A stretch of DNA of 5,875 nucleotides from a virus (lineage: Duplodnaviria; Heunggongvirae; Uroviricota; Caudoviricetes): IMG/VR virus record IMGVR_UViG_2778261251_000017; one strand, given 5' to 3'. The first letter of the stretch is position 1, and every line of letters starts with the position of its first letter. The notes under the pieces are model-generated. The model was not told the origin of the DNA. It saw nothing but the letters and a program-made list of their open reading frames with translations, and searched no databases. Made by a program: the position numbers and the translations under genes. Positions 1 to 5,875 of the stretch are shown here, in pieces.

Positions 1-23
1 GAAAAACGAGTATTTTTAGTCAT
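1..23 (-). CDS. IS3-family transposase OrfA, first 7 codons only (5-prime partial; continues beyond window)
   Basis: ATG at 23..21 on the minus strand, preceded by GAAAGAGG with 8-nt spacing. Translation MTKNTRF is the N-terminus I associate with IS629/IS1203 OrfA. Confidence 0.6.
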
Positions 24-77
24 CCTGTTTACCTCTTTCTCAGGGAGTTTAGTCTCCAGGATTTCCGGGGCGGTTCA
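1..77 (-). mobile_element. Terminal 77 bp of an IS3-family insertion sequence (IS629/IS1203/IS3411-like end); the body of the element lies beyond the window start
   Basis: The minus strand from 77 downward reads TGAACCGCCCCGGAAATCCTGGAGACTAAACTCCCTGAGAAAGAGGTAAACAGG followed by ATG ACT AAA AAT ACT CGT TTT. This is a TGA-initiated terminal inverted repeat, then an SD (AGAGG), then an orfA start encoding MTKNTRF, which matches my recollection of the IS629-group left end. Not verified against ISfinder. Confidence 0.7.
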
Positions 78-132
78 CTCAGATTAATGTTAAGCGTCTT
101 GCAGGACGCGTAATGTTAACTGGGGCTTTTCT

Positions 133-168
133 CTATCTGCCTTTGGTGTTCATGCCCGAGGCAGATAG
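133..168. repeat. Perfect 9-bp inverted repeat CTATCTGCC / GGCAGATAG separated by 18 nt
   Basis: Seen directly in the sequence (133-141 and 160-168). No U-tract follows on either strand, so it is not an intrinsic terminator. Possibly a protein-binding or recombination site at the cargo boundary. Confidence 0.5.
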
Positions 169-283
169 CCTCAAGCACCCGCAGCCATTCTACTTAACTA
201 CCTTTACCTCGCCAATATGAAATCAGTCAGAAAGACGATCCATAAGAACAATAGCAAGATTTCTTAATGGAGATGGATGTAAG

Positions 284-1771
284 CTAAATATTTTGGCTCG
301 GTCTGCTTTCTATTAAATGCAACCTGTATTTTAAAGCATGATGTGTCCTAAACTCATTTTGTAGATTAATTTTTAAGTTAGGCAAACTACTTACGTATTC
401 CCATCTACCTTGTTTTTTTTGTCCGATAAGTGAGTTATCAAACAGGAAGTTGATATATTGACGTATCACCCCATCAGAAATACCTGCAAATTCATTACGG
501 CACTTCTCGGAGAAATCATTAAAATCGAATGTTTCTACTTGGATAGTTTGAAGAACAGTTAGTAAGTTCTCAATTTCAGGGAATTGGTTGGACCATTCAT
601 CAATCACCTCATTGTACACACTTATAGATGCTTCACGGTCAGCTTCATAAAGCTCATTGGAAGTGTAAAGACCTGAGACATTATTTTTATGACATGCCCT
701 AATTTTGTTGAAGTAGACAATAATATCCCTAGGCCTAAAGAAAGAACGGCGACATATATATTTAAATGGAGGAGTCCCCTGCCTAACGAATGAAACCTCA
801 AATACTTTCCCAGATCTGTCCTTTTCGTCATCTAATATGAGATCATTAGGTTTGTATTTCTTTATCCTCTCATAATACATATCGTTTAGATTATTTTCAT
901 TCCATGAGATTATGATAGCACTATCTTGCAATAATTTGTTTTTATCATTGAATTTCAAAGAATGATAAATATCCGTTCGTAGGAAGGGAATGACTTTTAA
1001 TTTATCATTGAGGCGTTCATCAGATGCTATGTTTCTACAGACATTTAGCAGATTTATTAAAACCTTACTATATTCTTCAATTTGCCCCTCTAGCCAGTTT
1101 TCGTCTAATTGGTCAAGGGCGATAATTATTTTTTCATTACCAATGTTATCTTTAAAAATTTTTTCAAAATACGTAAGCAATGTGAAAGCATTAGCTCTTA
1201 GCTTTTGCTTTAGCTGAGCATTCTCAGCAACTTCCTCTAACGAAATTTCACCTGCGTCCAATGATACTTCATTAAGACCAGCACTGGGCCCTTTTATGGT
1301 TTTTAATCTGGTTATTTTTGAAAACAAAACCTCCCTAAGAGTTGGGTCGGGACTACCAAAGATAGTTTTGATATAATTATGTGCCCACGTTAGATCTTTG
1401 TTTAAAGTCTCTCCAGCATCATTTTTTATTTCAATAAGTTTAGATAATGCCTTAATATAAAAAAGATACATCCAACTTTTTTGATAAGCGGAAAGTTCTC
1501 CAGCCATTGCATCCTTGTAAAGTTGATGGGCTGGCCATGGATAGTCACTAAAATTTAGACATACTGAGTAAAACCCGTTGAGATTGGCTGGTTTTCCTCT
1601 TCTAAGGTGTTCATAAATGGCTGTTTTACCAGTACCTTTTCTTCCAAGAACCAACCAAGCCCTACTTTCAATAATATCCTTTATCGCCGGTAGCTTAAAA
1701 AAATAGGTCTGTAAGTCCCGATCTGTTTCTGCTGAAACTTGAAATTCTGGTAGCCAGTCTCTAATGTCCAC
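284..1771 (-). CDS. P-loop NTPase, 495 aa, family unassigned (Walker A near N-terminus, Walker B about 170 residues later); candidate anti-phage or abortive-infection cargo gene
   Basis: Long ORF with a GTG start at 1771..1769 and an AAGAGGA SD 5 nt upstream. The ATG two nt upstream is out of frame. Walker A LVLGRKGTGKT is encoded at about 1622-1648 and the Walker B-like IIIALDQLDE at about 1100-1129. The gene and its upstream region are markedly AT-rich compared with the neighbouring phage genes (judged by eye, not computed). Stop TAG at 286..284. Confidence 0.8.
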   Translation of the reverse strand: MDIRDWLPEFQVSAETDRDLQTYFFKLPAIKDIIESRAWLVLGRKGTGKTAIYEHLRRGKPANLNGFYSVCLNFSDYPWPAHQLYKDAMAGELSAYQKSWMYLFYIKALSKLIEIKNDAGETLNKDLTWAHNYIKTIFGSPDPTLREVLFSKITRLKTIKGPSAGLNEVSLDAGEISLEEVAENAQLKQKLRANAFTLLTYFEKIFKDNIGNEKIIIALDQLDENWLEGQIEEYSKVLINLLNVCRNIASDERLNDKLKVIPFLRTDIYHSLKFNDKNKLLQDSAIIISWNENNLNDMYYERIKKYKPNDLILDDEKDRSGKVFEVSFVRQGTPPFKYICRRSFFRPRDIIVYFNKIRACHKNNVSGLYTSNELYEADREASISVYNEVIDEWSNQFPEIENLLTVLQTIQVETFDFNDFSEKCRNEFAGISDGVIRQYINFLFDNSLIGQKKQGRWEYVSSLPNLKINLQNEFRTHHALKYRLHLIESRPSQNI

Positions 1772-2113
1772 ATTTTCCTCTTTACATTACATTACCTTTA
1801 TATTTTCCCAAAATAAATCAAAGTCATATGGCGTATCAAGTTTTTTTGATTATTTATGAGCTCATACTCAAAAAAACTAAATCTAATTTATCTTACGTTA
1901 ACTAAAGATTTCATATGTTAGTATGCTCAAGCAATGCTACTGCTGGAGTCTGATGATATCCGTTATACACTAATTGCCACGCACACAAGCGACATCAGTT
2001 CATGGCACAAAGCAGACAACCACGCTACCTCTACCCTATGCCATGAAAATGTCAATTTACATCTTAACTAATGCACTTTAATCTCGTCACTTAAATAGAT
2101 ACCGAACATTTCC

Positions 2114-2509
2114 CTAATAAAACGACAATATGCGCTGCATAACTTCGCTCTTCCGGCACTCGCGACAGATTATGTTTAGACGACTGTCGTAGCGACGTAT
2201 TTCTCCATCAGGTAGTGACCAGATAAGGTCCGGATCAACCACAGCGGGTTTCTTCACCTTCGCCCTAGAGAGTTTTTTGCGGGCATTTTGCCAGTCCTTT
2301 CGTGCCTGTTCAGACGGGAATAACCCGTAGCCGGAGTTGTATACATAACCACTGGCAACCAGCTCTCTGGCAAGAATGCTCATCAGATATCTTGTCGCAC
2401 CTGTTTTAGCTTCCAACTGTCGTAATGTCTCGCGACCGCTCTGGCGCACAAGTTCGACCACCTGCTCTTTAATTTTTTCCCGCTCTTCCTGTGTAAAAAC
2501 TTTTGCCAC
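2114..2509 (-). CDS. Hypothetical phage protein, 131 aa, with a possible helix-turn-helix segment (TGATRYLMSILARELVASG); sits where a helicase loader would be expected
   Basis: ORF with a GTG start at 2509..2507 preceded by AAGGAGG (4-nt spacer). Codon composition is like the neighbouring phage genes. I do not recognise the family. Confidence 0.6.
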   Translation of the reverse strand: MAKVFTQEEREKIKEQVVELVRQSGRETLRQLEAKTGATRYLMSILARELVASGYVYNSGYGLFPSEQARKDWQNARKKLSRAKVKKPAVVDPDLIWSLPDGEIRRYDSRLNIICRECRKSEVMQRILSFY

Positions 2510-2549
2510 AAGTCCTCCTTAAAATTACCTCATGACCTGAAATCAACAC

Positions 2550-3515
2550 TTATCCCCTGAAACCAGGCGGAATTTCTGTATCCGGTTCAGAAATATGATT
2601 CACACAACGCTGTACAGGTGAACGTCCCAAGCGGATGACCAGTTCGTCCCATTTTTCGCGGAGTTTTGACGGGCTCATGATGTTTTTTACCCAGAATGGA
2701 TCTCGCTGTACCCGACCAAACATTTCGCAAATTTGTCTGTGGCTTCTGCCATCCAGCATCCGCATTGTGCGCACGTCATTGGCCCAGGCTGTCCAGTTAG
2801 GCTCTTTTGGTCGCATGATCTCTCCATCGTCGCTGGCAGCCTGTTCGTAAAGGTTCACGATCCGCCCCCAAATCCACTGCGCACACGCCAAATCCTCCCT
2901 GCTACCCCACTGGCGTTTTTTCGCACTAAACACAACCGCGTCGGGGTTCCGGGTTAAAAAATCCTGTTCAGCGGTCTGCGGGTCCGGTTGCGAAGCTTCC
3001 GGACGAAAAGTGTTTTTATTCTCTGTAGTAATCTCTGTTGTATTCTCTGTAAGATCATCAGGCCATTTTGACCCGATGACATTGGGTCGTTTTGAACCAA
3101 TGGAGCGTTTCATTTTGACCTCTTCCATCGTGTCATTTTGACCTGATGGAGCGGCGCATTTTGAACCGATGGATTCGTTCAATTTGCCACCATCTAAAAG
3201 CTCGCTCCCATAGTTGATCGTGTAGAAATTGGTCATATCGCGCTTTGATTTATTGAGCTTTTCACAACGCAAAAGCCCCAGCGTTTTCAGACTTGCAAAC
3301 GCGCGCTTTAACGTTGACTCTGGCCAGAATGGGAACTGTTCCAGCCATTGTTCCGTTGTGTTGTAAATCCAGCGAACACCATCACATTCCATGCCGGAAT
3401 TGGTATCTCTCAACCAGTAATGCAGTTGCTGCAACACAATGGCTTCGTTTAAGCCAATCTTCATCGCAAGCTGTGTGTTTATAACCAGTGGGCGTTCAGC
3501 AAAAAGAAGGCTCAT
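2550..3515 (-). CDS. Phage replication initiator (lambda O-like replisome organiser) with iterons embedded in the coding sequence
   Basis: ORF on the minus strand. The preferred start is ATG at 3515..3513 (MSLLFAERPLV...). The ORF track extends to a TTG at 3569, which I consider less likely. The N-terminal region looks like a winged-HTH DNA-binding domain. The central region is encoded by a direct-repeat array (protein repeats IGSK match DNA repeats GGTTCAAAATG), as with lambda ori inside the O gene. Position is downstream of cro. Confidence 0.7.
   Translation of the reverse strand: MSLLFAERPLVINTQLAMKIGLNEAIVLQQLHYWLRDTNSGMECDGVRWIYNTTEQWLEQFPFWPESTLKRAFASLKTLGLLRCEKLNKSKRDMTNFYTINYGSELLDGGKLNESIGSKCAAPSGQNDTMEEVKMKRSIGSKRPNVIGSKWPDDLTENTTEITTENKNTFRPEASQPDPQTAEQDFLTRNPDAVVFSAKKRQWGSREDLACAQWIWGRIVNLYEQAASDDGEIMRPKEPNWTAWANDVRTMRMLDGRSHRQICEMFGRVQRDPFWVKNIMSPSKLREKWDELVIRLGRSPVQRCVNHISEPDTEIPPGFRG
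3004..3055. repeat. AT-rich tract with three tandem TCTCTGT(A/T)GTA-type repeats adjacent to the iterons; putative DNA-unwinding element of the origin
   Basis: GAAAAGTGTTTTTAT is followed by TTCTCTGTAGTAA, TCTCTGTTGTA and TTCTCTGTAAGA (about 3019-3054), immediately on the C-terminal side of the iteron array. The layout resembles the lambda ori (iterons followed by an AT-rich region). Confidence 0.5.
3064..3190. repeat. Iteron array: six direct repeats of core CATTTTGA(A)CC at 23-24 bp spacing; putative phage origin of replication
   Basis: Copies start at 3064, 3088, 3111, 3134, 3157 and 3180 (the last is degenerate, CAATTTGCC). Each is followed by a (G)ATGG-like tail. The array lies inside the replication-initiator ORF. 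Confidence 0.75.
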
Positions 3516-4017
3516 AATTCCATCCAGCTTTTTGTTGGTATTGCAGTCGATACGCAAGTTTGAAAGCAATTGCTTTTTCTATAAGTTCGTCAGTTTCACG
3601 ATCCACTACGGCAGGATCAGCAAAAAGCAGTCCGGACTCCACCACATCGCCATATTCTTTGTTTAACCCGGCGATCATGTACGTGATGCTTTTTCCGTCA
3701 CTAATTTCACGATACAACCTGAAATCATTAATCCGGATAGCCTCCATAATTGCAGGCACTAGCGCCGTGAACTTTTCACGCTTATCCCTAGTGTCGATAG
3801 CCTTCCAGCGTTCGAATATCTTCACTCGATTAACGCCAAGCGCTCGCTGATCAACCGCGCCACCTTCATCTGTGACACGCTGAACATCGATGTTCGGGCG
3901 CTCTTTCAAAGCCCAGAATGCTTCAGTGATTAATATCGTCGCCTGCTCCTGTGTCATTCCTGGTCGACATATCCAGGCATCCAGAGCCTCACGAGCCTGT
4001 TCAGGAGTGATTTTCAT
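3496..4017 (-). CDS. Hypothetical phage early protein, 173 aa, in the position occupied by CII in lambda; family not recognised
   Basis: ATG at 4017..4015 overlaps the cro stop (TGA at 4003..4001) by 17 bp. Its 3-prime end overlaps the preferred rep start by 20 bp. This suggests a translationally coupled cro-orf173-rep operon. Confidence 0.65.
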   Translation of the reverse strand: MKITPEQAREALDAWICRPGMTQEQATILITEAFWALKERPNIDVQRVTDEGGAVDQRALGVNRVKIFERWKAIDTRDKREKFTALVPAIMEAIRINDFRLYREISDGKSITYMIAGLNKEYGDVVESGLLFADPAVVDRETDELIEKAIAFKLAYRLQYQQKAGWNYEPSFC

Positions 4018-4228
4018 TGTTCAACCGCCCCGCCCGCTTCGTCTTACGATATTCGTCATAAACTTTGGGATCATACTGAAGCTCCCCGCCAGATGCCTCC
4101 TGTAGACGCATCGCGCGACCTTCAGGAACCAGTATCCCCCAAGCAGCAACACTTGCCAGTCTCACTCCTGCGGCATTGGCAAGCTTTGTTTTGCTGCCAA
4201 AAAAAGTAATTGCGTCAGCTTTAAGCAT
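4001..4228 (-). CDS. dicC: Cro-like regulator of the DicC/YdaS family, 75 aa
   Basis: ATG at 4228..4226 with a strong SD AGGAGG 5 nt upstream. The track start at 4231 is TTG and too close to the SD. It contains the FGSKTKLA...GV...VxxW motif typical of YdaS/DicC-type Cro proteins. It is divergent from the repressor gene with an operator palindrome between them. Assignment from memory; size matches DicC. Confidence 0.65.
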   Translation of the reverse strand: MLKADAITFFGSKTKLANAAGVRLASVAAWGILVPEGRAMRLQEASGGELQYDPKVYDEYRKTKRAGRLNNENHS

Positions 4229-4241
4229 CAAAGCCTCCTAT

Positions 4242-4259
4242 TGTTAGACTTTTCTAACA
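4242..4259. promoter_or_regulatory. Operator palindrome TGTTAGA-CTTT-TCTAACA in the cro/repressor intergenic region (OR-like)
   Basis: Perfect 7-bp arms with a 4-bp spacer, seen directly. It overlaps the predicted -10 and transcription start of the cro promoter. Confidence 0.65.
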
Positions 4260-4286
4260 TTATTGTGCGCGGGATACCTAAGTCAA
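4257..4286 (-). promoter_or_regulatory. Putative sigma70 promoter for the cro operon (PR-like)
   Basis: On the minus strand: -35 TTGACT (plus-strand 4281-4286), 18-nt spacer, -10 TAATGT (plus-strand 4257-4262). The predicted start lies inside the operator palindrome, about 20 nt upstream of the cro ATG. Pattern match only. Confidence 0.45.
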
Positions 4287-4308
4287 GAAAAATTAGAATT
4301 ACCTAACT

Positions 4309-4716
4309 ATGGATACAAGAACCCTAGGCCAGCGAGTTCTGGCGCGACGAAAAGAATTACGCTTAACACAACGAGAAGCTGCGCGCCTCGCTGGGGTTGC
4401 TCACGTCACAATTTCACAATGGGAAAGAGACGAAACCCAGCCAGTCGGAAAACGATTGTTTGCTTTAGCGGATGCTCTGAAGTGCTCACCTACATGGCTA
4501 ATGTTTGGTGACGAAGACAAGGCACCAGTGCCGGCACAAGAACTTCATGTGGAAACAGAGCTAACTCCCAACCACAAAGAATTGATCGAATTATTCGATG
4601 CTCTTCCATCTTCCGAGCAGGAAGCCTTGCTGTCTGAAATGCGCGCAAGAGTAGAAAACTTCAACAAACTCTTCGAAGAAATGCTTAAAGCGCGTAAAAA
4701 TAAATCAATAAAATAA
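4309..4716 (+). CDS. dicA: XRE-family HTH repressor, DicA-like (CI-type immunity repressor without a peptidase domain), 135 aa
   Basis: N-terminal HTH (LRLTQREAARLAGVAHVTISQWE) and a C-terminal helical region with SPTWLMFGDED and NFNKLFEEMLKAR motifs that I recall from E. coli DicA. Same length as DicA (135 aa). Divergent from a DicC-like cro and flanked by matching palindromic operators. No SD upstream of the ATG. Confidence 0.75.
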   Translation: MDTRTLGQRVLARRKELRLTQREAARLAGVAHVTISQWERDETQPVGKRLFALADALKCSPTWLMFGDEDKAPVPAQELHVETELTPNHKELIELFDALPSSEQEALLSEMRARVENFNKLFEEMLKARKNKSIK

Positions 4717-4751
4717 CATTCTTTTCAAGTGATTAGTTGCGCCCACTCTTT

Positions 4752-4771
4752 TTGTTAGACTAATCTAACAA
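4752..4771. promoter_or_regulatory. Operator palindrome TTGTTAGA-CTAA-TCTAACAA downstream of the repressor gene (OL-like)
   Basis: Perfect 8-bp arms with a 4-bp spacer. Same half-site as the operator at 4242-4259. Confidence 0.65.
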
Positions 4772-4778
4772 AAAACAC

Positions 4779-4807
4779 TTGCCTCTTATGTTAGGTTATT
4801 CTAAATT
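4779..4807 (+). promoter_or_regulatory. Putative sigma70 promoter of the early-left (dicB-type) operon
   Basis: -35 TTGCCT (4779-4784), 17-nt spacer, -10 TAAATT (4802-4807), bracketed by the operator copies. An alternative is TTGCGC (4737-4742) with TAATCT (4761-4766). Pattern match only. Confidence 0.4.
4789..4806. promoter_or_regulatory. Degenerate third operator copy TGTTAGg-TTAT-TCTAAat
   Basis: Matches 6/7 and 5/7 positions of the half-sites, with the same 4-bp spacer. It lies 36 bp from the 4752-4771 site and overlaps the spacer and -10 of the predicted early-left promoter. Confidence 0.4.
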
Positions 4808-4884
4808 ACTTTCCATCAAGACACCGCACGGTGTTCTCAGCAAACAGTTCCGCTACCCCGGCGTTAAGGGGAAATGAGGTCAGC

Positions 4885-5037
4885 ATGGATACTATCGATC
4901 TTGGCAACAGCGAATCTCTGGTATGTGGCGTGTTCCCCAACCAGGACGGCACGTTCACCGCGATGACGTATACCAAAAGCAAAACGTTTAAAACCGAATC
5001 TGGCGCGCGTTGCTGGTTAGCCAGAAACACTGACTGA
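4885..5037 (+). CDS. ydfA: Small prophage protein, 50 aa, YdfA/YdaF-like (first gene of the dicB-type operon)
   Basis: ATG at 4885 with SD GAGG 5 nt upstream. The track start at 4831 is not ATG and lacks an SD. The size and position immediately downstream of the dicA-like gene match ydfA of Qin and ydaF of Rac. Sequence identity is not verified. Confidence 0.55.
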   Translation: MDTIDLGNSESLVCGVFPNQDGTFTAMTYTKSKTFKTESGARCWLARNTD

Positions 5038-5048
5038 TGAGGCTGACG

Positions 5049-5414
5049 ATGGAATTTAAAGATTTACCGTCTGATGTACAGAAAACAGCAGCTCATACAT
5101 TGCATTCTGTGCTGCGAGAAATCGGGAAAGATATTGCAAGCGAGCCAGCAAAAGATCTGGCCCGGAAAATCAAGACCGCTTTCGTTGAGCTTTATAATGT
5201 TGGCACTGACTCTGAAACTGTCGAGACCAAGACCGTAAGTTCACCAATATTCTCACTTGAGCCAGGCGTATTATCAGGTGAAATATGCACCGAGATTTCC
5301 AGCGAACTGCTTCCGGTAATACGAGAAGCAATTTGCCGTCGCGGTTTGGATGGAAGTTACGATCATGACGTCCTGCAAGTTCTCAGGACAATGGTGACTT
5401 CACTGGGGATTTGA
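5049..5414 (+). CDS. Hypothetical protein, 121 aa, family not recognised
   Basis: ATG at 5049 with SD GAGG 6 nt upstream. An alternative ATG at 5037 overlaps the preceding stop (TGATGA). It follows the ydfA-like gene in the same operon, where Qin carries ydfB and ydfC. Confidence 0.6.
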   Translation: MEFKDLPSDVQKTAAHTLHSVLREIGKDIASEPAKDLARKIKTAFVELYNVGTDSETVETKTVSSPIFSLEPGVLSGEICTEISSELLPVIREAICRRGLDGSYDHDVLQVLRTMVTSLGI

Positions 5415-5583
5415 TCCCTGCGTCCTCTAACCTTTTGATATAGCGGTCCTCCAAGAAGCGGTAAATTTTGTCGAAATCATCTTTCCCCTCTGGTTTATTC
5501 AGAGGATTACAGGACCCGTAAGTAGCGGCATACATTTCAACCTTTTTATCAAAAATATAAGAGACAAATTCTTCTTTAGTCAT
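5383..5583 (-). CDS. Hypothetical small protein, 66 aa, convergent with and overlapping the 3-prime end of the 121-aa gene
   Basis: ATG at 5583..5581 with SD AAGGA about 8 nt upstream. The track 95-aa version starts at a GTG with no SD. The 3-prime end overlaps the plus-strand gene by 32 bp. Highly charged protein (MTKEEFVSYIFDKK...DRYIKRLEDAGIK). Confidence 0.5.
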   Translation of the reverse strand: MTKEEFVSYIFDKKVEMYAATYGSCNPLNKPEGKDDFDKIYRFLEDRYIKRLEDAGIKSPVKSPLS

Positions 5584-5858
5584 ATAGATTTCCTTCTTGG
5601 TTATTCGGGATAAGAAGGATACCACCTCGCCTGACGTGGTTAAAAGCAGGCACACAACACGAAAGCGCACGGCGAAGTTCGTCTCACTGTACGGTGTCGT
5701 TAAATTTAATTCGACCGTGCGCTTCCGGTTGTGGCAACCCGCGAAATGGCGCGGCGGTAAGTATGGCGGGGTTATTCCTTCCCCGTTGAGGACACCGAGT
5801 TGTCAGGTTGACCATACGCTTAAGTGACAACCCCGCTGCAACGCCCTCTGTTATCAAT

Positions 5859-5875
5859 TTTCTGGTGACGTTTGG
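5859..5875 (+). ncRNA. dicF: 5-prime end of a DicF-like sRNA (first 17 nt only; continues beyond window end)
   Basis: TTTCTGGTGACGTTTGG matches the 5-prime end of E. coli DicF as I recall it (UUUCUGGUGACGUUUGGCGGUAUCAG...). The position downstream of a dicA / ydfA-type operon is as in Qin. It is preceded by a GC-rich, hairpin-rich leader. Confidence 0.5.

Follow-up and report, generated by a model that had tools for sequence, protein, structure and literature searches.

A solitary Sll1717-family P-loop ATPase gene in an exchangeable cargo slot of an Escherichia coli lambdoid prophage, with a predicted Orc1/Cdc6-like fold and a candidate role in phage exclusion

Gene content of the locus

This study concerns a gene encoding a 495-amino-acid P-loop ATPase in a stretch of 5,875 nucleotides, hereafter the window, from the Caudoviricetes record IMGVR_UViG_2778261251_000017 of IMG/VR. 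The window is a piece of an E. coli Qin/DicB-type lambdoid prophage adjoining rspB, and strain ETEC1738 is identical at 99.9% to window positions 78-5875. A prediction made earlier from the letters of the window (the original prediction) had proposed the gene as an undescribed anti-phage or abortive-infection determinant carried as AT-rich cargo. The features on which the analysis is centred are as follows.

284..1771, minus strand: coding sequence of the Sll1717-family P-loop ATPase (495 amino acids), taken from the open reading frame (ORF) list, with the stop codon at 284-286 and a GTG start at 1769-1771
260..1991: AT-rich cargo cassette, composed of the gene and its own upstream region, which is swapped for a different cassette in sister phages
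1772..1991, minus strand: upstream non-coding part of the cassette, with a ribosome-binding site, a sigma-70-like element and an inverted repeat

A correction to the original prediction is that the ATPase gene lies on the minus strand. Beyond a cI-like repressor gene on the plus strand, the minus-strand genes read from right to left encode a Cro-like protein, a YdaT-family protein, an O-like replication protein, DUF977/LygF and then the ATPase, so that the position claimed for the gene, just beyond the replication genes, was correct. A ribosome-binding site, AAGAGGA, was found by sequence inspection about 8 nt 5' of the GTG start (at about 1776-1782). The GTG start is supported because the N-termini of homologues match (MDI..W is kept) and the Proteus copy has an ATG at the same codon.

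A full-length member of a catalogued ATPase family

The protein belongs to NCBIfam NF047389 ('P-loop ATPase, Sll1717 family') over its full length, with a score of 250.4 bits against a cut-off of 75 (E = 3.8e-74) and residues 13-484 aligned to profile positions 5-454 of 454. It also matched PHROG 13260, a family of unknown function (E = 7.6e-34, residues 14-485 on profile positions 14-490 of 497), and the identical protein is present in RefSeq as WP_000354584.1, named P-loop ATPase, Sll1717 family. The description of the protein as 'unclassified' in the original prediction therefore does not hold. An exhaustive metagenome search placed the size of the family at 1373 clusters at 50% identity (E ≤ 1e-3), mostly of 470-520 amino acids. 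In the literature, no paper on the Sll1717 family or on WP_000354584 was found, nor any assigned function. Gene and family have thus been catalogued before, and novelty would lie in assigning the family a function and in the idea of a minimal switch that works by itself, with no effector.

Other sequence models added little to this assignment. No Pfam model matched the query above threshold. Sub-threshold Pfam matches among 101 relatives were to AAA_16 (56 relatives), ORC-CDC6-like (50), nSTAND3 (10), NPHP3_N (7), nSTAND1 (4), NACHT (1) and KAP_NTPase (1). The ORC-CDC6-like model (PF24389) left the query unmatched at E ≤ 1 and reached a best E of 1.3e-7 in the 50 relatives, and TIGR02928 (orc1/cdc6) scored the query at 11.2 bits against a cut-off of 181. 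None of the Pfam STAND models (NACHT, NB-ARC, nSTAND1-4 and NPHP3_N) was matched by the query, and the Pfam models DnaC/IstB, IstB_IS21, TniB, DnaA and Bac_DnaA had no matches in the query or in the relatives. Searches of PDB sequences with close and broad profiles returned local P-loop similarity only, to LRRK2 Roc and ABC-F proteins, and the BFVD viral fold library gave no match at E ≤ 1e-3.

Conserved nucleotide-site motifs and predicted fold

Conservation was computed over the 101 family members, at 21-55% identity, and an AlphaFold2 (AF2) model was built from 42 homologues, with a predicted local distance difference test score (pLDDT) of 77 and a predicted template modelling score (pTM) of 0.74. 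The following elements of the protein were located, all on the minus strand of the window.

1622..1645, minus strand: Walker A/P-loop GRKGTGKT, residues 43-50; G43, K45, G46, G48 and K49 invariant
1100..1129, minus strand: Walker B strand IIIALDQLDE, residues 215-224; D220 invariant, D223 99% conserved
977..979, minus strand: R265, directly after strand 4 (AF2 strand 258-264); R265 100%, D267 99%
725..736, minus strand: R346-P347-R348-D349, at the start of a lid helix (AF2 helix 347-360); the four residues 94-100% conserved
1145..1537, minus strand: helical insert after strand 2, residues 79-209, between AF2 strands 67-73 and 214-220, with low pLDDT at 165-175
287..481, minus strand: C-terminal basic winged-helix-like domain, residues 431-495, with AF2 helix 433-445 and strands 449-453, 456-458 and 474-476

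Both Walker motifs and the FRPRDII segment had been singled out in the original prediction. The Walker B sequence stands where it was placed, and the Walker A sequence and its K49 are as described, with the motif spanning residues 43-50 and not 42-50. FRPRDII (residues 345-351), noted there as conserved-looking, contains the nearly constant R346-D349 stretch, in which P347 and R348 are invariant. Further conserved positions are R44 (at least 90%), W100 within the helical insert (invariant), a YPW..H motif at the start of the insert, D276, K279 (99%, before strand 285-287), R302 (invariant, after the same strand) and H477 in the C-terminal domain (93%). Variation is confined to insert residues 106-200, the most variable part, and three short loops. 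The conserved positions are those expected of a working nucleotide site, and the protein is therefore predicted to be a catalytically competent nucleoside triphosphatase (NTPase).

The AF2 model has strands at residues 40-42, 67-73, 214-220, 258-264 and 285-287, a helical lid at 292-360 with further helices after it, and the winged-helix-like domain. The lid and the winged helix are basic, and the C-terminal region has an isoelectric point of 9.9. In Foldseek searches the top match was Orc1/Cdc6 (2qby_A, E = 6e-6), in a full-length alignment that includes the C-terminal winged-helix region; origin recognition complex (ORC) subunits, BrxC, RdrA and NRC3 came next, archaeal AAA+ ATPases and STAND proteins were likewise among the closest, and DnaA, clamp-loader proteins and TnsC/MuB were among the matches. 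The protein is thus modelled as an AAA+ fold nearest to Orc1/Cdc6, with a helical lid and a winged helix, and the profile searches gave no sequence-model homology to a helicase loader or initiator. In the model the NTPase core, lid and winged helix fill all 495 amino acids, with no effector domain, no additional Pfam domain and no additional folded domain.

The long spacing between Walker A and Walker B results from a family-wide helical insert of about 130 residues after strand 2, and this explains the earlier observation that the spacing is too long for a compact NACHT core. One hallmark of the ORC/Cdc6 clade is an insertion that follows strand 2, at the helix-extension-helix or initiator-specific-motif position; the others are a finger close to strand 5 and a bundle of helices (PMC12839542). 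In the predicted structure these hallmarks appear to be present in modified form, the insert of about 130 residues being far above the canonical one. For the finger near strand 5, which would act in trans, K279 or R302 are conserved candidates, judged from single-chain secondary structure. On the basis of the model, R265 would occupy the sensor-1 position and the RPRD sequence a sensor-2 or GxP-like position. The signature of the STAND nucleotide-binding module combines Walker A, a Walker B with additional acidic residues, an arginine as sensor 1, a proline kept in the helical domain and a histidine kept in the winged-helix domain. The residues K49, D220-D223-E224, R265, P347 and H477, which are 93-100% conserved, follow one another in what would be the order of this signature in Apaf-1-type proteins, as compared through the AF2 secondary structure.

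An AT-rich cassette in a slot shared with defence genes

Local BLAST alignments showed that window positions 78-259 (97.8%) and 1992-4132 (96.3%) match phage mEp460_ev081, and that 260-1991 is without a match; the phage has an unrelated 2.16-kb segment in its place. Because the flanks match and the interval is replaced as a whole, the mobile unit was delimited to about 1.73 kb, composed of the gene, 24 bp downstream and 220 bp upstream. The GC content is 34.5% in 260-1991 versus 46.9% in 1992-5875, and the GC content at third codon positions is 0.31 in the ATPase gene versus 0.39-0.51 in the neighbouring genes. These data agree with the original prediction that the gene and its flanks are AT-rich, and the replacement of the cassette between flanks 96-98% identical to those of mEp460_ev081 bears out its reading of the gene as cargo, which was acquired horizontally and lies in a variable prophage slot.

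The upstream part of the cassette contains a sigma-70-like element, TTGATA-18-TATTTT at 1839..1810 on the minus strand, whose scan score is within shuffle expectation. A 15-nt A/T-rich inverted repeat (1839-1853 and 1864-1878, 93% complementary, 10-nt spacer) overlaps the candidate -35 element, and a diverged palindrome is found at the equivalent place in the Proteus copy. The repeat could serve as an operator, or could halt transcripts that read through from the replication operon. Nucleotide identity of 83.5% with the Proteus copy reaches window position 1911, 140 bp upstream of the start codon, the last ~50 nt being nearly identical. Judged from these comparisons, the ATPase gene probably carries its own control region.

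The slot between DUF977/LygF and hok is occupied by different genes in different phages. In mEp460_ev081 it holds a 449-amino-acid gene (L002:3678-5027, plus strand) that is on the strand opposite to that of the ATPase gene, is annotated 'hypothetical protein' and matches PADLOC PD-T7-1 over its entire length (E = 4e-157). Vassallo et al. 2022 validated PD-T7-1 among the 21 systems that they had picked out by experiment, and its presence here substantiates the earlier claim that the gene sits in a defence position. The slot of phage Tritos holds an FRG-domain protein (L039:2236-3570, plus strand) matching the candidate system PDC-S15, that of HannyBb a QueH-like epoxyqueuosine-reductase homologue (L038:2047-2733, minus strand) together with a methyltransferase, and that of PhiR42_1 a methyltransferase and small ORFs. 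Since sister phages with matching flanks hold differing genes there, the DUF977/LygF-hok interval behaves as an exchangeable cargo slot able to hold defence genes. As far as could be seen, this lambdoid slot is a hotspot, for defence genes or for cargo, that had not been described before.

On the far side of the ATPase gene from the replication genes, two further features were identified.

21..180, minus strand: match to the sok antitoxin RNA (Rfam RF01794, 62.3 bits versus a gathering score of 59)
1..77: end of an IS1203 (IS3-family) insertion sequence (IS), with 100% identity to annotated IS1203 copies

The sok match is the remnant of a hok/sok module that follows the cassette in intact relatives, and is context and not part of the ATPase system. 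The addiction module appears to have been disrupted in the window by the IS insertion. Although the original prediction was right that an IS element is a neighbour of the gene, the two do not abut; the IS1203 end is 206 bp from the ATPase stop codon, with the sok remnant between them. In NRG 857C the identical ATPase gene is followed directly by an intact hokD with no IS, which makes IS1203 incidental to the ATPase gene, and IS1203 is likewise missing from the IMG/VR copies that carry the gene. The IS1203 stretch was matched in 3566 of 5426 E. coli genomes.

A further observation concerns the gene model of the O-like replication protein. The longest ORF (2550-3569, minus strand) begins at a TTG at 3569, encodes 339 amino acids and overlaps the YdaT-family gene (3496-4017, minus strand) by 74 nt. 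The RefSeq O-like product has 321 amino acids and begins at about window position 3515, and the true start is probably internal to the longest ORF.

Occurrence and genomic contexts of homologues

Among the 5426 complete E. coli genomes, 43 carry the gene, in chromosomal copies at least 99% identical and with a median of one place per genome, and the E. coli copies in IMG/VR are all in the same slot. The close subfamily, 61-72% identical, extends over Gammaproteobacteria, Campylobacterota, Bacteroidota, Bdellovibrionota and Patescibacteria. The contexts of homologues outside the E. coli slot were as follows.

Serratia copy: in the old/tin hotspot of a P2-like prophage, with gpA on one side and Ogr/portal on the other
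IMG/VR contig L045, 92% identical: downstream of the terminase gene, which the contig carries along with gpA and portal genes, all of them P2-like
Klebsiella copy: in a P2-like prophage, at a convergent junction within the tail module
Proteus copy: directly after the integrase of a lambdoid prophage
Vibrio cholerae copy: beside a filamentous prophage, adjoining rtxA
IMG/VR contigs L051-L053, 45-46% identical: about 900 bp downstream of an integrase
Tenacibaculum copy: in an island that also encodes GmrSD, a reverse transcriptase, methylases and further ATPases
Arcobacteraceae copy: adjoining AbiTii on an element resembling integrative and conjugative elements (ICE-like)
Lactococcus phage CAP homologue: directly after the lysin gene
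Shewanella, Methylococcaceae, Enterobacter and two metagenomic contigs: ordinary chromosomal neighbourhoods, the Shewanella copy lying between pstS and phoR

The P2 old/tin hotspot was described by Rousset 2022 and Vassallo 2022. About nine of 14 distinct contexts were cargo slots of mobile genetic elements or defence islands. The expectation that homologues recur in defence islands or prophage hotspots was thus borne out in part: the P2 gpA-portal hotspot and the island with GmrSD, reverse transcriptase and methylases agree with it, and about a third of the contexts are plain chromosomal ones.

No conserved partner was found among 131 neighbouring ORFs in 26 loci, in which no Pfam family occurred more than three times; phage integrase was the commonest neighbour family (3 of 131 ORFs) and Y2_Tnp was found once. 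The gene therefore moves as a solitary unit in the loci compared. A 97-amino-acid ORF precedes the Vibrio homologue in independent contigs (L003:9573-9866 and L005:270-563, both plus strand) and is matched by neither Pfam nor PADLOC models; its absence beside the other homologues examined makes a partner role improbable.

Matches of neighbouring ORFs to PADLOC models were discounted in several cases. Those to DolB (E = 1.7e-32) and PDC-M37B (E = 8e-41) came from a ClpB gene (L019:7011-9608, plus strand), and the one to SspA/DndA was probably due to a single Aminotran_5 (cysteine-desulfurase-type) neighbour. Batch PADLOC matches to single components are easily misread as defence neighbours.

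Other observations concern the fate and the spread of the gene. Truncated copies covering 38-61% of it were found in STEC313, STEC367, EA2 and GPEC1405 (hits H67-H70), the EA2 remnant lying under an rspB-type 'Zn-dependent oxidoreductase' annotation, which suggests deletion or decay of the cassette in some E. coli lineages. The copies in metagenome-assembled genomes of Patescibacteria/Magasanikbacteria (L021 and L031) share 62-63% identity with the E. coli protein; for a protein of 495 amino acids whose synonymous divergence is saturated, this is unusually broad horizontal spread.

Conflict-system fusions and purifying selection in the family

Several longer, distant relatives are fused to domains typical of prokaryotic conflict systems. 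A C-terminal GT4-conflict glycosyltransferase domain was found in P0164 (E = 8e-128), two EAD7 adaptor domains are inserted just after the Walker A helix in P0170, which keeps the family insert, and P0249 and P0253 have N-terminal cold-shock (nucleic-acid-binding) domains. GT4 domains are predicted effectors fused to STAND NTPases, and EADs are homotypic adaptors that recruit effectors (Kaur et al.). The PADLOC candidate profile PDC-M28C, whose length of 480 is near that of the protein, was matched by 72 of the 101 relatives, with a best E of 6.8e-15. These fusions and matches tie the family to immunity-type systems, although the window protein itself is a bare NTPase module and its relation to PDC-M28 is one of homology and not of system membership.

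The ratio of nonsynonymous to synonymous substitution rates (dN/dS) was 0.07 against the Proteus copy and 0.02 against a P2-borne copy. Against the Klebsiella, Serratia, Vibrio and Tenacibaculum copies dS was saturated, with dN of 0.07-0.28. It follows that the protein has a function and is under tight constraint throughout its length, and that very recent transfer does not account for the similarity between phyla. Constraint as uniform as this is unusual in a sensor that follows rapidly evolving phage proteins, and it speaks for a target that is itself conserved, for instance a nucleic-acid structure or a host machine.

Proposed function and alternative explanations

We lean, with modest confidence, towards the view that the gene encodes a stand-alone prophage accessory ('moron') NTPase of ORC/Cdc6-STAND type, which would protect the lysogen by phage exclusion or abortive infection. 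The data establish the gene itself, its family, its class of fold, the conserved nucleotide-site motifs, movement on its own, location in defence hotspots and strong purifying selection; the defensive role, the trigger, the oligomerisation and the output are what we infer. The protein would idle in a nucleotide-bound off state until the helical insert, the winged helix or both sensed a conserved feature of an infecting phage, for which a nucleic-acid structure or a replication intermediate is favoured over a fast-evolving phage protein. Sensing would be followed by ATP-dependent oligomerisation, and the assembled ATPase could act as its own effector, either by coating or clamping DNA and so blocking replication or packaging, or by engaging a host factor. 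A bolder form of this proposal, which we regard as unlikely as it stands, is that an effector-less minimal ORC/Cdc6-STAND NTPase constitutes a complete single-protein immune system, in which the winged helix and the giant insert would recognise a conserved nucleic-acid feature of phage DNA or of replication intermediates and ATP-dependent polymerisation would block replication or packaging, with no nuclease, NADase or pore. An origin-recognition-like defence of this kind would explain the ~60-70% identity from Enterobacteria to Bacteroidota and Patescibacteria, and how the gene could function wherever it lands.

Several observations weigh against a defensive role. The output step is speculative, because the protein has no effector domain. 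Strong and uniform conservation is atypical for a sensor engaged in an arms race. The sole PADLOC match of the query was a partial one to PDC-M28C (E = 4e-5, residues 212-304). About five of the 14 distinct contexts are ordinary chromosome, and the scan of neighbours against PADLOC, which had no background control and contained false positives, is not an enrichment test. Promoter and terminator scans gave no candidate above chance, which bears on expression in the lysogen. Sequenced phage isolates hardly ever carry the gene, a single match, 24% identical, having been obtained. In the literature searched, no experimental evidence that any family member protects against phage was found; earlier experiments on the family may exist. 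Finally, the founding family member, Sll1717 of Synechocystis, has reportedly been connected with plastoquinone-pool redox state, a phenotype unrelated to defence.

The strength and uniformity of the conservation would also suit a non-defence accessory role, in which the protein would be a nucleotide-dependent regulator of host physiology or stress, or a lysogenic-conversion factor. Winged-helix NTPases can be transcription regulators, mutation of Synechocystis sll1717 is reported to have affected plastoquinone redox state, and several of the chromosomal copies are single-gene insertions among housekeeping genes, such as the one at pstS-phoR in Shewanella. The patchy strain-level distribution argues against such a role, as do the repeated residence in slots otherwise occupied by validated or candidate defence genes, the conflict-system fusions of relatives and the homology to a PADLOC candidate, and we judge it rather improbable. 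A defence ATPase that is not self-sufficient is about as doubtful as the bolder proposal above. On this view the protein would provide the sensing or switching part of a split system, and a host nuclease, protease or membrane protein encoded at another site would be the effector; alternatively, the protein would depend on a partner, as in the multi-gene candidate PDC-M28. This would account for a protein without an effector domain and is in keeping with the related PDC-M28C belonging to a candidate that is multi-component, judged by its name, with the EAD7 adaptors of relatives, which recruit other proteins, and with the fold-sharing BrxC and BrxD, which act inside multi-protein systems. However, no conserved neighbour was found in the 26 loci, and the travel of the gene alone across elements and phyla is hard to reconcile with a split system unless the partner is universal.

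The remaining explanations are much less probable. Hotspots hold defence and anti-defence cargo alike, and the gene is present on diverse mobile elements, including the copies beside a filamentous phage and on the ICE-like element, so that a role in counter-defence or inter-element competition, shielding the element from host immunity or hindering rival elements, could be considered. Known anti-defence proteins are usually small and expressed early, the homology is to a defence candidate, and the solitary chromosomal and defence-island copies fit a host-side function better; this role is accordingly thought very unlikely. A prophage replication initiator or helicase-loader-type AAA+ protein would be suggested by the fold nearest to Orc1/Cdc6, by DnaA, clamp-loader and TnsC/MuB among the structural matches, and by the adjoining replication genes on the same strand. 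This explanation is largely refuted: the gene is missing from mEp460_ev081, PhiR42_1 and HannyBb, whose replication module is 96% identical and whose slot is filled by unrelated genes, and also from Tritos, where the replication gene differs and the DUF977-type/hok slot is the same, homologues are found in tail modules, beside integrases and in phage-free chromosome, and neither the Pfam initiator and loader models (DnaC/IstB, DnaA, Bac_DnaA), the TIGR02928 score nor the foreign GC content supports it. Least probable of all is a transposition or target-selection ATPase (TnsC/MuB/IstB-like) of the adjacent IS or of another mobile element. Other genomes have the identical gene without IS1203, no transposase is a conserved neighbour (the integrase and Y2_Tnp counts are given above), no Pfam IstB or TniB match was obtained, and no terminal repeats flanking the gene were seen in the loci.

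If the protein does act in defence as proposed, it would be a very compact single-protein addition to NTPase-based immunity, consisting of the nucleotide-switch module only, with a bearing on how switches may serve as effectors. A function would then be available for the large catalogued family NF047389/PHROG 13260 in many phyla, and the DUF977/LygF-hok slot would gain support as a defence hotspot comparable to P2 old/tin. If the role is not defensive, the strong conservation and promiscuous transfer of the gene still need explaining.

Comparison with known systems

Two groups of defence ATPases set aside in the original prediction were also rejected here. ABC-type defence ATPases (OLD, Gabija GajA, PARIS AriA, Septu and WonA) do not apply, as there was no AAA_15, AAA_21 or PADLOC match to them and the predicted fold is AAA+. 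WonAB of V. cholerae WASA-1, considered on account of the Vibrio homologue near a prophage, is unrelated, being described as an ABC ATPase (WonA) that is paired with a nuclease. KAP exclusion NTPases (PifA, Tmn and Reve) resemble the window gene in being single-gene P-loop NTPases of mobile elements with an insertion inside the NTPase domain. The KAP reading was rejected because the protein has no transmembrane helices (the best 19-residue Kyte-Doolittle mean was 0.83) and KAP_NTPase was not matched by the query at E ≤ 1, the single relative that matched doing so at E = 0.0086. Reve, a validated single-gene ATPase/KAP defence from a P4 satellite hotspot (2026 P2/P4 study), is probably a different family, judged from the absence of any KAP signal in the window protein.

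PD-T7-1 shares with the window gene the DUF977/LygF-hok slot, the single-gene organisation and a length of ~450 amino acids. The protein itself, annotated as a nuclease and encoded on the opposite strand, is unrelated, and the equivalence is positional only. PDC-M28 is a multi-gene candidate by its name, in a class (PDC) of unvalidated systems, whereas the window gene is solitary. Immune STAND proteins are tripartite, with an N-terminal effector and C-terminal sensor or repeat domains (PMC13581612). Compared with STAND NTPases such as Avs, bNACHT and NLR-like proteins, the window protein has neither the N-terminal effector nor the C-terminal repeat or sensor domains, is far shorter at 495 amino acids and has a large internal insert.

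BrxC and BrxD of BREX are like the window protein in having an ORC/Cdc6-clade ATPase followed by a winged helix, and BrxD is a stand-alone ATPase of that clade (PMC12839542). The BREX ATPases belong to conserved multi-gene loci with PglZ, PglX and others, in contrast to the window gene, which has no conserved neighbours and no detectable sequence similarity to them. The archaeal proteins Orc1/Cdc6, SSO1545 (2fna) and PABY2304 (2qen) share the AAA+ core, the post-strand-2 insertion, the helical lid and the C-terminal winged helix, at 9-17% identity and with template modelling (TM) scores of 0.37-0.47. From Orc1/Cdc6 the window protein differs in its insert of about 130 residues, where Orc1/Cdc6 has a short helix-extension-helix, in the invariant arginine at the putative sensor-1 position and in its non-replication context. 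In length and architecture it is the same as NF047389/PHROG 13260, of which it is a member and which has so far been given a name only.

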